64,000 bases of DNA from positions 346,906 to 410,905 of the forward strand of contig CP066686.1 of the NCBI GenBank assembly GCA_016432365.1, written 5' to 3'. Below, piece by piece: positions 30,785 to 63,657 of this stretch (its first letter is position 1; the number at the start of each line of letters is the position of its first letter). Source of the DNA: Candidatus Woesebacteria bacterium (GTDB taxonomy: Bacteria > Patescibacteriota > Microgenomatia > UBA8517). The notes under the pieces are model-generated. The model made no database searches. It was not told the origin of the DNA and worked only from the letters and a program-made list of their open reading frames with translations. The position numbers and the translations under genes are program-made.

Positions 30785-30855
30785 CTGGGGAGCAGGGATT
30801 TGAACCCCAATAGGCAGATCCAGAATCTGCAGTCCTACCATTAGACGACTCCCCA
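30785..30855 (-). tRNA. tRNA-Gln(CUG)
   Basis: Cloverleaf: TGGGGAG/CTCCCCA acceptor stem, GCAGA-TTCTGGA-TCTGC anticodon arm, GTTCAAATC. Confidence 0.95.
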
Positions 30856-46594: not shown

Positions 46595-46667
46595 GGCCCC
46601 ATCGTCTAGCGGTCTAGGACACTAGATTCTCATTCTAGTAACTTGGGTTCGAGTCCCAATGGGGTCA
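46595..46667 (+). tRNA. tRNA-Glu(CUC)
   Basis: GGCCCCA/TGGGGTC acceptor stem, CTAGA-TTCTCAT-TCTAG anticodon arm, GTTCGAGTC. Confidence 0.95.
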
Positions 46668-58986: not shown

Positions 58987-59020
58987 CAAGGTATAGTAGT
59001 TAGTGTATATACTACAATTA
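58983..59020 (+). promoter_or_regulatory. nrtR copy 2 promoter with autoregulatory operator
   Basis: TTGACA at 58983; TTAGTGT-ATATACT-ACAATTA (59000-59020) overlapping the -10. Confidence 0.75.
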
Positions 59021-59022
59021 GT

Positions 59023-59679
59023 ATGAAGGATACAAAGACATTTGCAGTATTGGCCACAGACGTTGCAGTTTTGACTATCGACAATGGTGTTCTTAAAGTC
59101 CTTTTAACCCAGGCGACATCTAAAAACTTTAAGGGAATGTTGACTTTGCCTGGAGGTTTAGTTGGTCATAAAGAACGTACCGAAGAAGCTGCTATAAGAG
59201 TCCTCAAGGAAATAATGATAAAAACGGATTACTATAACGAGCAACTTTATACATTCGACGATCCCGGCAGAGATCCTGAGGGTCGAGTCGTAACAGTTGC
59301 CTATTTAATGTTGGTTCCGGAAGATGAGGCTAAAAGAGTAACTAGAAAAGACGCTTCGTGGCACGCCGTGAAAACTTTACCAAAGTTGGCATATGATCAT
59401 AATGAAGTTGTGAAAGCTGCTGTGAAAAGGCTAATGGGAAAATTGACCTACACTAATATTGTTTACTCTTTGATGCCCTTGGAGTTTACTCTTTCAGATT
59501 TGCAGAAAACCTACGAAACTGCGCTGGAACTAACCCTAGATAAAAGGAATTTTATTAAAAAAATAAAGAGTTTAAATCTTGTTCATAAGACAACCCATAA
59601 GGTTGAGGGTAGTGCACACCGCCCGGCAACCCTTTACAGGTTCAGGGAGCGAAAATATAAGAGGGTTGACTTATTTTAG
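59023..59679 (+). CDS. nrtR: NrtR-family transcriptional regulator, copy 2
   Basis: LPGG, EQLYTF..RDP, LAYDH, FTLSDLQ, DKRNF, RPATLYRF. Confidence 0.9.
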   Translation: MKDTKTFAVLATDVAVLTIDNGVLKVLLTQATSKNFKGMLTLPGGLVGHKERTEEAAIRVLKEIMIKTDYYNEQLYTFDDPGRDPEGRVVTVAYLMLVPEDEAKRVTRKDASWHAVKTLPKLAYDHNEVVKAAVKRLMGKLTYTNIVYSLMPLEFTLSDLQKTYETALELTLDKRNFIKKIKSLNLVHKTTHKVEGSAHRPATLYRFRERKYKRVDLF

Positions 59680-59742
59680 AAAATACCTATAATACGAAGT
59701 TGATATTTTTAAGCACTTTAGTTAGTGTAAAATATACATTTT
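59666..59742 (+). promoter_or_regulatory. Operon promoter plus NrtR operator
   Basis: TTGACT-16-TATAAT; TTAGTGT-AAAATAT-ACATTTT (59722-59742). Confidence 0.7.
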
Positions 59743-59939
59743 CAAGATTGAAATGAAGGTTTTTCAGAAAAACCTCCTGACAATTTTTAATTTGTACTTT
59801 AACAGTTAAAGAGTGTTACTAAAGATTCAGAACTGTTTGTGACGGTCACACCCTTTCGACTAAATATTAGCCGGAAGAGAGTGACTGTTACAGCAGAAAC
59901 TGAAGCTGTGATGGCATATATCTACAAAAGGAGATCACT

Positions 59940-60869
59940 ATGGACGAAACCAAAAGCACTGATTTGAGCATTGTGCCTGTAAAGCCCGATGCCGCATTGG
60001 TGGCCACCCTTACTCACGAATTCGACTTCGTCGGCGCGAGTGGGGCGAATTACGAGGCCTACAGTCTTGGTGGCAAGCCGTTGGTGGAAACACCGACTTT
60101 CAAGTTGGCTATCACCAAACTTCCGTCCGGCCAGTTTGGCTTGACGATGATTGCGTCCGAACCCAAGCACAATTGGCGGATCGAAACACAACAGCATGTT
60201 CTGCATACCTTGCAGGAAATGGCTGCGTTTGAAGACGCTGAGACAAAAGGCGATAAGCCTTTCTTCGGCGCACTTTTCCCCACCATGGTAGATACCATGG
60301 ACACGGGCGAGGACAATCCTCGGGCCGGGCTTGTAATGGGTTTCCATCCGGAAATCGCAAGCTACAAGCAGCTGGTTCCGCTCTCGGTTGTTCTCAAAGG
60401 CGGCAAACGCGTCGATCTTCAGACCAGTGTTTGGATGCTAAGTAAGGCCCTCAAGCTCCTGGACTTTGTCCACGCAATGGGTTTCGCGATCAACTGGATC
60501 GATGAGGATAATTACCTGATCGAGACTGCCCGCCACGGCGTTTTCATCCTGAATTGGATGGAATCGATCGAGGAAGCATCGGTTGATGAGCAGAAGACCG
60601 ACATCAAGGACCTTGCCAATCTCGTTTGGCGCGCTGCTGGCGGCACGGACAAATCGAATCCCCCTCATGACGAAAAGATCATGGACAAGGCCGGATACGA
60701 CAAGTTCGTCGCCTTTTTGAAGCGCTTGATGAGCGAGCCGGATACGGCTGGCAATGAAATGGACGCGCTCCTTGCGCTGGCCGATTCGATCTGGGAACGG
60801 ACTGCTTTCCCCGGCGTTCGCACGCCCGATGGCAAGAAGCGTCCTTTCCATGAATTCGTTACGTACTAG
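59940..60869 (+). CDS. Protein-kinase-like protein, probably catalytically inactive
   Basis: WMLSKALKLLDFVHAMG..NYLI..HGVFILNW resembles kinase subdomains VIa-VII without HRD/DFG; AGGAG RBS. Confidence 0.65.
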   Translation: MDETKSTDLSIVPVKPDAALVATLTHEFDFVGASGANYEAYSLGGKPLVETPTFKLAITKLPSGQFGLTMIASEPKHNWRIETQQHVLHTLQEMAAFEDAETKGDKPFFGALFPTMVDTMDTGEDNPRAGLVMGFHPEIASYKQLVPLSVVLKGGKRVDLQTSVWMLSKALKLLDFVHAMGFAINWIDEDNYLIETARHGVFILNWMESIEEASVDEQKTDIKDLANLVWRAAGGTDKSNPPHDEKIMDKAGYDKFVAFLKRLMSEPDTAGNEMDALLALADSIWERTAFPGVRTPDGKKRPFHEFVTY

Positions 60870-60878
60870 GAGGTCGAA

Positions 60879-62027
60879 ATGAAGACAGAAGACACTGCAA
60901 TGTTCAATACGAAAAAGTATGAATCCACTGTGGAAGCAATGCGCTCCCGCGGCGAAGAGGTTCATGCCAAAGGCCGTGAGATTTATCGCCGGACCAAGCG
61001 TATGGATCCTCTGGTTGATGTCAACGGCAAGCTCCGCTTGTCCCACAACTCGTTCAAAAAAGTTGATGGCAAGCCAGTGCTCGTCAACGGCCCAGCCCTG
61101 CCGATCTGGTCCGGGTTCGATGGAACCGGTTCGATGGGTGAAAATGCCGGCCGCGCACACGCTGCACTCGCGGAAATCAACGCGATGCTCAATGGAATCC
61201 GCGGAACCTACAATCCGCAACTCGCGACATCGGTAATTCAGGATGTGGATGACCCCCACCCTGTCTTCCAGATGTCCCAGTTTGAGCCTGATGAACGGAT
61301 CGCAGAGCAAATTCGTCTGCTGATCCCCGACGGCGCTGGTGGCGATGAGACCGAAGACTACCAGCTTGCGCTGGCCTATCTCATGTTGGCGACCGATTTC
61401 GATATCGCCAACTTCTATGGCCTCAAGGGCTATGGATTCATCGTTGGTGATGAAATCGGGCGCGAAGACGTGACCGTGAAAGATGTCGAAAAACATCTCG
61501 GCCACAAGCTTCAGAGCAAAATGACCACCAAGGCTGTTGCCAAGGAACTGGCCAAGAAGATGCATCTCTTCTACATCCACGTTCAACTTGGGCATAGCCA
61601 TGGCCATTCACCTGCCTGGTGGCAAGACAAATTCGGCGCCGGCCATGTCGTGGTCGCGACTGACGTCAGCCTCTTGGCTGAACTTCAGGCCGGGCTCATC
61701 TACGTGACCGAAACTCTCGAACCGACCGAAGCTGGTCTCTTCGAATTTCTGTCGGCTGGTGGATCGAACAAGCATGCTACCAAGAGCGCAGTTGCCAAGG
61801 TCTGGTCTTGGATCACTGAAGCCGGCGTTCCTTTCGGCGCTCAGGTCAAGCTTGCCGGTTACAAAGACCTTCCCAAACCGGGAGACGTCTTTGAGAACAT
61901 CCGTCATCAGTGGCCCGTCGGTCACAAACGCTTCGCTGAGAATGTGATCGCCCCCGAGGCGACCGTCACCGAAGTGCACGTCAGCTCTCCCAAGAGCGAA
62001 AAACCCGATTGGTCTCGCTTCGGCTAG
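60879..62027 (+). CDS. vWA-domain protein
   Basis: MIDAS-like DGTGSM, GAGGDETEDY, IVGDE; GGAGG RBS. Confidence 0.8.
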   Translation: MKTEDTAMFNTKKYESTVEAMRSRGEEVHAKGREIYRRTKRMDPLVDVNGKLRLSHNSFKKVDGKPVLVNGPALPIWSGFDGTGSMGENAGRAHAALAEINAMLNGIRGTYNPQLATSVIQDVDDPHPVFQMSQFEPDERIAEQIRLLIPDGAGGDETEDYQLALAYLMLATDFDIANFYGLKGYGFIVGDEIGREDVTVKDVEKHLGHKLQSKMTTKAVAKELAKKMHLFYIHVQLGHSHGHSPAWWQDKFGAGHVVVATDVSLLAELQAGLIYVTETLEPTEAGLFEFLSAGGSNKHATKSAVAKVWSWITEAGVPFGAQVKLAGYKDLPKPGDVFENIRHQWPVGHKRFAENVIAPEATVTEVHVSSPKSEKPDWSRFG

Positions 62028-62172
62028 ATCGTCTGAACTGTAACACTCTTTTCGTGTACCCACTCGCATCCTTTGGGGTGGGTACACGATCTTGCATAAG
62101 ATCTTTAATTTTTGAAACGACGTCATTGCGATGTCAATTTATTCGAAAATTAGAAAGATCCATGCAAGAAAC

Positions 62173-62227
62173 TAACCCTCTTCCGATGTGTGTCGGAACC
62201 GATGAGCCCCAAAGGGCGAAAGGGATA
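62173..62227 (+). ncRNA. Type III hammerhead ribozyme-like RNA (U4C core variant)
   Basis: CCC-UC / stem I UUCCGA-UGUGUG-UCGGAA / CCGAUGA / stem II GCCC-CAAA-GGGC / GAAA-GGG. Confidence 0.75.
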
Positions 62228-62232
62228 ATAAA

Positions 62233-63657
62233 ATGGAAAGACAAACTGCCATTGTAACAGGACTAGGCATTGGCGATGAAGCCAAGGGTGCGACAGTTGA
62301 GTGGCTTACACGCCAGCTCAATGCTCATACCAATCTCCGATCCGGCGGACCTCAGGGCGGGGCTCATATATCAAGAATCGACGGACGTGAGCAGATGTTT
62401 TCGCAATTTGGAGCCGGTACTTTTGAGGGAGCAAAAACACATCTTCTGCACATGGTGGTTAGCCCCTGGGATCTTTTCAACGAAGCAGTGGATCTTGAAA
62501 AAAATGGCGTGGAAAAACCACTCGAACGAATAACAATCGATTCAGAAAGTTTAATCCTTACCCCGTATCACAGCGCAATTAGCAGATTTAGGGAAATTAT
62601 GCGTGATGAGAAAAAAGGAACGGTGGGTAAGGGTGTAGGGGAAGCGATTCGCGACTCTAAAAATCCGGAACTTTCAATCCGGGCGTGGGAATTCTTCGAA
62701 CCCAAGGAAACACTTGCGCGTAAAGTTGAAGCGATCAGATCTTCCAAATATTCAGAGGCTCTGGAAATAATTAGACAAAAAAACGGAAAGGAAATGCCCG
62801 GGGCGGCTCAAATGGAACTAAACATTCTTCTTAATAGGAGACTGGTTGGGCAAACTGTAGACATGTTTTCTTATATGGCCGGTTTGGTTAAGATAGTTGA
62901 CCGTTCTTATCTGGACGACATTCTAAATCTTCCCGGATCGATTGTGGCGGAATCGTCACAGGCCGCACTTCTGGACCCCAGAATTGGCTTTGTGCCCCAT
63001 GTTACTCAGGTTGATACTACAGGAAGAAGGGTTATTAATACGCTTAAGGATCATGATTACAGAGGAAAAGTAATTCGGCTTGGGGTAAGCCGCACCTATA
63101 TGATAAGGCACGGTGCCGGTCCTTTTGTAAGTTATAGTCCGGAAATGACAAAAACGCTCCCTGAAGCTCATAATGCAAATCCCGTAGACACTCCATGGTC
63201 GGGTGAATTCAAAAGAGGGCATTACGATGTGGTTGCCATGAAATATGCGATTGATGCAACGGGCGGGAGGCGTGCGTACGACGGATTGGTTATAAATTTC
63301 ATGGATATTTTGAAAGATAGAAAGGAATGGGATGTGTGTGTAGCCTATGATTATGACGGCGATAAACACGATTTAGAAGATTTCTTTGTAGTTGAAAATG
63401 GTCTGATCCGAGGTATAAAAGTTCACCATGATGACGGTAGCTCGGCCCATCTCAATCACCTGGCTCAACTCACAAAACTACTCGCCAAAAGTCATCCCGT
63501 TTTAACTACATTAAAAGCTGAGGACAGCAAATCTCTTTCGGAAGTGTTTATAGATTTCGTTGAATCTAGCCTTGAAGTTCCTGTGGTTGCTACCGCCGAC
63601 GGGCCTTACGTTGAAGATAGGCATATCCGATCGGGACACGAAAATTCATTTGGTTGA
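62233..63657 (+). CDS. Divergent adenylosuccinate synthetase-like protein
   Basis: GDEAKG, GGPQGGAH, GTVGKGVG, ESSQ..LLD, RTYMIRHGAGPF, NFMD, DGP. Confidence 0.85.
   Translation: MERQTAIVTGLGIGDEAKGATVEWLTRQLNAHTNLRSGGPQGGAHISRIDGREQMFSQFGAGTFEGAKTHLLHMVVSPWDLFNEAVDLEKNGVEKPLERITIDSESLILTPYHSAISRFREIMRDEKKGTVGKGVGEAIRDSKNPELSIRAWEFFEPKETLARKVEAIRSSKYSEALEIIRQKNGKEMPGAAQMELNILLNRRLVGQTVDMFSYMAGLVKIVDRSYLDDILNLPGSIVAESSQAALLDPRIGFVPHVTQVDTTGRRVINTLKDHDYRGKVIRLGVSRTYMIRHGAGPFVSYSPEMTKTLPEAHNANPVDTPWSGEFKRGHYDVVAMKYAIDATGGRRAYDGLVINFMDILKDRKEWDVCVAYDYDGDKHDLEDFFVVENGLIRGIKVHHDDGSSAHLNHLAQLTKLLAKSHPVLTTLKAEDSKSLSEVFIDFVESSLEVPVVATADGPYVEDRHIRSGHENSFG

Follow-up and report, generated by a model that had tools for sequence, protein, structure and literature searches.

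An RNA with the fold of a type III hammerhead ribozyme, carrying the core change U4C and the cleavage triplet CUC, is found at 62176..62224 on the forward strand of the window (the whole stretch of 64,000 nucleotides of Candidatus Woesebacteria DNA analysed here), where it is identified by descriptor, fold and covariation. A vWA-like gene upstream and a gene related to adenylosuccinate synthetase (PurA) downstream are separated by 205 nt of spacer, at the end of which the hammerhead lies. The reading to which we incline is that it ends a boxA-led kinase-vWA unit behind a hairpin and would uncouple from that unit a PurA-like message that is likely less stable, with an overlap between the ribozyme and a predicted Shine-Dalgarno (SD) sequence that likely tunes output and is not the conserved purpose of the element.

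The hammerhead fold

The three-stem topology of type III is found, with stems I and II closed by loops and stem III open. The 5' strand of stem III, CCCU (62176-62179, read from the sequence), pairs with 62221-62224 and is followed by C17 at 62180, after which cleavage is predicted. Stem I pairs UUCCGA (62181-62186) with UCGGAA (62193-62198) around the loop UGUGUG, its 6 bp becoming 7 bp if a closing U-G wobble is allowed, and is followed by the core CCGAUGA (62199-62205), by stem II with GCCC (62206-62209), the loop CAAA and GGGC (62214-62217), by GAAA at 62218-62221 and by GGG at 62222-62224. The core nucleotides C3, G5, A6, G8, A9, G12, A13 and A14, the pair A15.1-U16.1 and H17 are all present in the window, the C at 62200 being position 4, where the consensus U4 is not found. 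Each of these elements lies where an earlier, sequence-only reading of this DNA had placed it, with U4C as the single core deviation. That reading had also drawn attention to the first U of loop I (U62187) and the last A of loop II (A62213), and both are present and invariant in 18 aligned copies; in type III hammerheads loops I and II make a tertiary contact.

Compared with the type III hammerhead of Rfam (RF00008, clan CL00010), the topology, the three stems, C3-G8, G5, A6, A9, G12-A13-A14, A15.1-U16.1, H17 and the invariant loop nucleotides are the same, whereas U4C, a CUC triplet with G15.2 in place of the usual GUC, and the lack of an RF00008 score are different. The Infernal search of Rfam that had been proposed as a check was run and returned no hammerhead at gathering score in the window, the best match being HH9, out of register, with 14 bits and an E-value of 2.3. 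The sole Rfam matches at cut-off in the window are two tRNA genes (46595-46667, +, and 30785-30855, -). The RF00008 (Hammerhead_3) cut-off is 48.5 bits, the best of seven relatives (L021) reaches 27.7 bits, a phage copy (L012) reaches 44.5 bits in the Rfam scan, and these hammerheads are missed by Rfam.

The type III site is unique in the 1.08-Mb genome when both strands are searched with a descriptor that has loose stems and allows any base at position 4, and 40 Mb of simulated third-order Markov DNA gave no match to the type III descriptor; a looser descriptor for all types adds four weak type I/II matches in the genome. The stability of the 76-nt fold is modest (z -1.85, with 7 of 200 shuffles as good) and that of the entire spacer very high (z -6.64, 0 of 200). 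Stem III has 4 bp and an ensemble probability of 0.12-0.38 in the window under models without the tertiary contact, and in the fold ensemble C3-C4 mispair with the GG of stem III at a probability of about 0.2. Translation from the AUG within the hammerhead core was considered and rejected, the frame in the window stopping after 8 codons.

The unit that the hammerhead would close

All features of the operon are on the forward strand. An NrtR-type Nudix/wHTH regulator gene (59023..59679; PF21906, PF00293) is followed upstream of the operon by a sigma-70-like promoter, TTGACT-16-TATAAT (59666..59693), which matches at 11 of 12 positions and has a similar sequence in genome G002. Two similar TAGTGTA...TAC boxes, at 59003-59020 before nrtR and at 59719-59742 just after the operon promoter, are candidate NrtR operators, judged by the consensus. 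A boxA-like motif, TGTACTTTAACA (59793..59804), is related to a motif in the host rRNA leader and stands directly before the leader strand AAAGAGUGUUAC (59808..59819). The genes that follow are kinase-like (59940..60869; Pkinase-fold matches, and phrog_3043 kinase with an E-value of 5.7e-7) and vWA-like (60879..62027), the latter name being only a lead from the nearest named clusters (vWA, score 0.82), a TM of 0.71 to a putative vWA cluster and phrog_2971. Both have a strong SD and a high GC content, of 53-55% as against 41-47% for the PurA-like gene; across the genome a strong SD is mostly a feature of high-GC genes (35-54% vs 3%).

Behind the vWA-like gene the trailer strand GUAACACUCUUU (62040..62051) is complementary over all 12 nt to the leader strand, which lies 2.2 kb further upstream; right after the trailer come a GC-rich hairpin (62052..62089) and an 80-nt hairpin of -27.9 kcal/mol (62090..62169), which ends 6 nt before stem III. 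As a control for chance, 3 of 300 random 20-mers reach a 12-nt complement within 9 kb. Covarying leader-trailer pairs were seen by eye in 9 of the 9 loci with both ends, with an energy control of 1 of 60 or better in just 3 of these 9. The arrangement resembles the boxA and leader-trailer helix of rRNA operons (PMC10250234, accessible part) in its boxA-like motif, which the host rRNA leader has too, in the complementary leader and trailer that enclose the unit, and in the presence of NusB and Rho, both encoded by the host; it differs from what that part of the source describes in having protein-coding genes inside, a helix of about 12-14 bp, and a hairpin and ribozyme after it. BoxA-like motifs recur in the genome (G000:C1 406698, 429619, 1050445, 1012 in the rRNA leader, and others), and several are followed by a strand with a complement of 10-14 nt lying 0.7-2.9 kb downstream, before long hairpins, which suggests a class of rRNA-style mRNA units in the host genome.

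Downstream of the hammerhead, the divergent PurA-like gene (62233..63657) encodes 474 aa (PF00709, E 1.7e-41) and is the only PurA-family gene in the genome. The protein scores 94.8 bits with TIGR00184, the canonical PurA model with a cut-off of 395.55, and is below every NCBIfam cut-off. It has a GDEAKGA P-loop where the canonical protein has GDEGKGK, the sequence QGGAH with Ala where the E. coli enzyme has His41, and SQA in place of the HG motif of the family. The changes GDEAKGA, Ala and SQA are common to it and to its closest protein, P0002 (70% identical), and its best PHROG, phrog_1211, is labelled 2-aminooxy adenylosuccinate synthetase.

Relatives and copies elsewhere

The 39 closest proteins were aligned and their loci fetched, which gave 16 distinct relatives with upstream DNA after L025 (no upstream DNA), L032 (partial match) and L028 (the same as L026) had been dropped. 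In 14 of the 16 a type III hammerhead with U4 lies before the start codon; it is absent from L031 and L035. Three of the real copies (G002, L027 and L036), each with one mismatched pair, were missed by the descriptor. In an alignment of 18 copies, which takes its structure from the window and has a few rows misaligned in stem II or III, 95.9% of cells pair and 11 of 15 pairs have changed on both sides in a compensatory manner, a level of pairing reached by none of 500 shuffles, with slid controls at 31-57%. C3, G5, A6, G8, A9, A14, A15.1 and U16.1 are invariant in the 18 copies, and G12 and A13 are kept in at least 90%. Apart from longer stem II hairpins, no aptamer-sized insert was found in the 18. 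The identity of the element as a hammerhead and the splitting of a polycistron, both proposed from the window's letters, are thus supported by conservation and compensatory pairs, the cleavage itself being a prediction.

The PurA-linked hammerhead is tied to one gene across 44-56% protein identity, and its start codon is always near, at 48-68 nt from the cut site. The six more distant PurA-like loci L037-L042 gave no hammerhead with the descriptor (the L042 leader being judged by descriptor alone), scanning GTDB contigs with a single protein gave no close relative, and no relative of the close PurA-like clade turned up in IMG/VR. Where a PurA-like junction has no ribozyme the slot is filled by a hairpin, with a U-run in L031 and L038 and without one in L035, L037 and L040. 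It is apparent that 11 of 38 homologous proteins (P0002, P0008, P0009, P0010, P0012, P0018, P0025, P0030, P0031, P0032 and P0036) open with the hammerhead read as codons, for example as MSPKGRK or TDESKRTK, and these extensions are, by their sequence, likely an artefact of gene calling. A PurA-like frame of 1090 codons at L026:3917-7189 may be a fusion.

Two pattern searches of the same 401 genomes of the host's class extended the family. The first, with G forced at 15.2, gave 12 matches outside the window in 7 genomes, and the second, with the bias at 15.2 removed, found 43 in 34 genomes, compared with 8 found by a reversed control. These tallies include G203, whose locus L212 was dropped, and 30 loci were fetched for the 43. 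Full type III folds are found in 10 of the 12 first-pattern matches and in 22 of the 29 second-pattern matches examined. A hairpin ends 0-6 nt before stem III in all 14 parsed PurA-linked copies, and one ends within 6 nt in 3 of 3 second copies, in 10 of 10 class copies with G15.2 and in 16 of 22 other class copies. An ATG that starts an ORF within 22 nt was found by script for only 6 of 32 non-PurA class copies, with 4 more added by eye, and at L046, L050, L051, L053 and L054 a promoter-like or boxA-like site was seen by eye after the hammerhead. No start lies near the second copies (L018b, L023b and L029b), each of which closes a unit upstream of it. The common pattern is a stop codon, a long hairpin and a hammerhead.

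Within this class the copies are found in a variety of settings. Family f26 (L221, L225-L227, L231, L232, L234-L236) is a second junction that is conserved: the hammerhead lies immediately before a start, the upstream genes vary and no SD is found; the downstream gene appears glycosyltransferase-like by its sequence. Contig G458:C4 has three hammerheads about 3.5 kb apart (L044, L051, L053) and genome G248 has five (L048, L052, L054, L055, L236), and in every case a small block of genes ends at the hammerhead. The same hairpin and hammerhead also terminate a further unit, which encodes an unnamed protein of 300-380 aa and one of roughly 100 aa (L018:7481-9142, L023:189-635, L029:122-1717, L036:85-1490), and the larger of the two can also directly precede the PurA-like gene. 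Two other records, L059 (366 bases) and L060 (377 bases), have loop I and stem II sequences in common and appear by their size to resemble plant-virus satellite RNAs.

Clustered hammerheads of bacteria and prophages were described by Perreault et al. (2011; PMC3088659, accessible part), where they lie between co-directional genes, with polycistron processing proposed and tandem cleavage shown in vitro. The present copies are likewise between co-directional genes and at times in tandem (L018, L023, L029, G458, G248). They differ from what that part of the paper describes in that they are chromosomal and tied to the PurA-like gene, with a long hairpin and leader-trailer pair upstream and a stem III that overlaps an SD-like sequence.

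Predicted cleavage, ribosome loading and decay

Overlap with an SD had been proposed for this site, with AGGGA hidden in stem III, cleavage needed to free it, and translation of the PurA-like gene thereby turned on. AGGGA does lie at 62221-62225, 7 nt before the ATG at 62233, but the sequence ahead of the PurA-like start that pairs best with the anti-SD is GAAAGGGA (62218..62225, +), which takes in the catalytic G12-A13-A14 as well as the 3' strand of stem III. The host 16S has an anti-SD, taken here from its 3' region with the mature end assumed. In the window GAAAGG stands 9 nt before the AUG, within the 8-10 nt peak of the host, where 13 of 19 AAAGG sites lie at that distance; of 631 crude starts, 8 have it upstream where 2.3 would be expected, and the window's anti-SD energy of -7.8 kcal/mol is in the top 6.5% of the 631 crude ORF starts. 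AGGGA is not enriched before host starts (8 vs 5.9 expected), and SD use is rare in the host, with 6% of ORFs at -8 kcal/mol or below as against a background of 3.4%. The position and energy of GAAAGG make the overlap plausible in the window, whereas a conserved SD spacing across the family is not found.

That cleavage turns translation on seems unlikely, although several observations favour it. AAAGG follows the core in 13 of 15 PurA-linked copies but in only 4 of the 32 full type III folds found elsewhere in the class, 10 of the 15 have an anti-SD energy of -6 or below compared with 12% of host ORFs, the predicted gain in SD accessibility on cleavage is at least 0.15 in 9 of the 15, and the C-G pairs at 15.2 and 15.3 are kept in 15-16 of 17 rows whereas stem I pairs vary. 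A phage type III U4C hammerhead (L012:2973-3040) also carries an SD in its stem III, AGGAG, with a GTG frame of 115 codons opening 6 nt further on; in phage L014 the frame is only 23 codons. However, the distance from AAAGG to AUG in the 15 copies is 5-9 nt in ten, 3 nt in one and 20-22 nt in two, and falls at 8-10 nt in only two; the remaining two copies have no AAAGG. Stem III is weak, the predicted accessibility in the window changes from just 0.59 to 0.66 (in a model without the tertiary contact), and GAAA is dictated by the core in any case. GAAAGG persists in the second copies, for which the ATG rule of the script gives no start in the next 100 nt, starts in f26 directly adjoin hammerheads that have GAAAC or GAAAU, and none of 7 SD-bearing phage type III copies has its SD in stem III. 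No ligand, sensor or conserved alternative fold controlling cleavage was found in the PurA-linked copies, so any translation gate would be constitutive. Engineered hammerhead switches that release a ribosome-binding site were reportedly made by Wieland and Hartig in 2008, and in RiboJ-type insulators a hammerhead defines a 5' end; the window shares with these an SD in the closing stem or a type III hammerhead setting a 5' end, and differs from them in being natural and without an aptamer, with a short stem III and an SD that overlaps the catalytic GAAA.

The opposite outcome, an off switch with a glmS-like result, is rather improbable. Here a ribosome on GAAAGG would mask G12-A13-A14 and block cleavage, and untranslated messages would be cut and their PurA-like part destroyed by RNase J. 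The SD does overlap the catalytic GAAA itself, the host has an RNase J above cut-off, RNase J1 degrades the 5'-OH products of hammerhead and glmS cleavage (PMC7967978, accessible part), and the ribosome would gain from a core slowed by U4C; against this, no metabolite-sensing part is present and the stems are minimal, the SD-AUG spacing is scattered over 3-22 nt, and the ribozyme is completely transcribed before the AUG. A switch between the trailer and the SD was rejected: pairing of the trailer with GAAAGGG is in the minimum-energy fold of the window but is not conserved, since among 12 other loci stem III is the stronger of the two in 9, matches it in 1 and is the weaker in 1, and blocking this pairing leaves the stem III probability unchanged. 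Compared with the glmS ribozyme and its RNase J1 decay (PMC6765202, PMC7967978, as far as these sources were accessible), the window has likewise an RNA of self-cleaving type 5' of a metabolic-enzyme gene in an RNase J host, yet the ribozyme is of another class, lacks a cofactor site and lies inside an operon.

It is very unlikely that the U4C copy of the window is simply too slow to matter, leaving a relic or only hairpins. Such a reading draws on the 14 PurA-linked relatives with DNA, all of which keep U4, on the two relatives without a ribozyme, on the mispairing of C3-C4 and on the 'considerably' decreased activity of U4C in vitro (PMC3088659, accessible part). In the same text, however, a viroid variant with U4C is still infectious (the natural U4C viroid hammerhead of Ambros and Flores 1998, its ref 30), which has the core change in common with the window and differs from the copies described here, which are DNA-encoded in bacteria and phage and recurrent. 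The stems of the window's copy are perfect, and a search of IMG/VR with the same stem II pattern gave 15 U4C matches, with 13 of 14 distinct ones being complete hammerheads, and at least 128 with U4 (80 of these, 75 of them distinct, being analysed), but none for each of G5A, A6G and U4A. With another pattern all 4 U4C matches were full hammerheads, and the second copy L029b has U4C too. The N-terminal extension of P0002, RCVSQPMSPKGRK, agrees with the window's frame-read CVSEPMSPKGRK and differs from the CVSELMSPKGRK of U4 loci, and because it reads like the U4C frame, U4C is, judged from protein alone, likely common to the window and P0002. The recurrence in phage, the matches of this other pattern, L029b and P0002 therefore make U4C a likely case of a tolerated slow form rather than of decay.

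The reading that we prefer, a hammerhead that ends the kinase-vWA unit, would work as follows. The ribozyme would cut itself after C62180, more slowly with U4C, and the upstream product would end behind the 80-nt hairpin, which would protect its 3' end. The downstream PurA-like RNA would begin with a 5'-OH, with stem I at its very end and GAAAGG open, and would be exposed to RNase J. The ribozyme would thereby stand in for a terminator or processing site, PurA-like output would be uncoupled from kinase-vWA output and possibly lower, and a slow U4C would favour the uncut message. Genes for RNase J and RNase Y were found in the host genome and none for RNase E; in Gram-positives RNase J1 degrades the 5'-OH products of hammerheads (PMC7967978, accessible part, citing Collins 2007). 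With RNase J in the host, the effect of cleavage on expression could be a decrease instead of an increase. Circularisation by RtcB was rejected, no RtcB being found in G000 (95.98% complete) and only one hammerhead being present.

This unit-ending role is favoured by the shared order of stop codon, hairpin and hammerhead, by the scarcity of starts near non-PurA copies, the promoter-like or boxA-like sites that follow several copies and the second copies with no nearby start, by the hairpins at ribozyme-less junctions, by the tolerance of U4C, by the host's set of RNases and by the precedent for polycistron processing (PMC3088659, accessible part). Against it stand the constant nearness of the start in the PurA clade, the retention of AAAGG there, and position 15.2, at which 28 of the 29 type III copies from phage have C, unlike the G15.2 of PurA-linked copies; stem I at the first base of the downstream product could also block RNase J. 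The PurA-linked copies are moreover one clade, so their 13 of 15 AAAGG are not 13 independent events, and 2 of 16 relatives lack the ribozyme. The enrichment of AAAGG at the PurA junction points to extra selection on the sequence, which a pure 3'-end role leaves unexplained. With G12-A13-A14 forming part of the SD, a loading ribosome and a folding ribozyme would be in competition, and because they would exclude each other the overlap likely tunes output.

Type III hammerheads, U4C and a proposed role of bacterial hammerheads in polycistron processing are known, and the role of bacterial self-cleaving ribozymes other than glmS has been called largely elusive (PMC3088659, PMC6765202 and PMC6155905 for the former, PMC6765202 for the latter, accessible parts). 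No paper was found that ties a hammerhead to adenylosuccinate synthetase, to Patescibacteria/CPR or to a natural bacterial SD, in a search whose full texts lay mostly outside subscription journals, and the hammerhead lists of surveys and the supplements of Perreault 2011 may hold these sequences. What is new is the enrichment of G15.2 and of an SD at the PurA junction, the controls on U4C tolerance, and the placement in a boxA and leader-trailer unit. A bolder proposal is offered only tentatively: that the catalytic GAAA and stem III double as the SD of the next gene, making cleavage and ribosome loading mutually exclusive, that in Patescibacteria the element closes an mRNA unit of rRNA style, with a boxA, a leader-trailer helix and a hairpin at the 3' end, and that U4C is a selected slow setting which would fix the ratio of PurA-like to kinase/vWA product.

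The PurA-like junctions form a family of natural controls, with and without the ribozyme (hairpin only), with U4 or U4C, SD-overlapping or SD-free, and start-proximal or unit-terminal. Reporters should respond in opposite ways under the models of processing, of translation turned on and of decay, so that a single series of constructs would tell the three apart. This is a family of hammerheads to whose copies Rfam is blind and inside which gene callers mis-start the PurA-like protein. Through its overlap with the predicted ribosome-binding site the hammerhead may link cutting with translation, a role for bacterial self-cleaving RNAs that can be put to the test.
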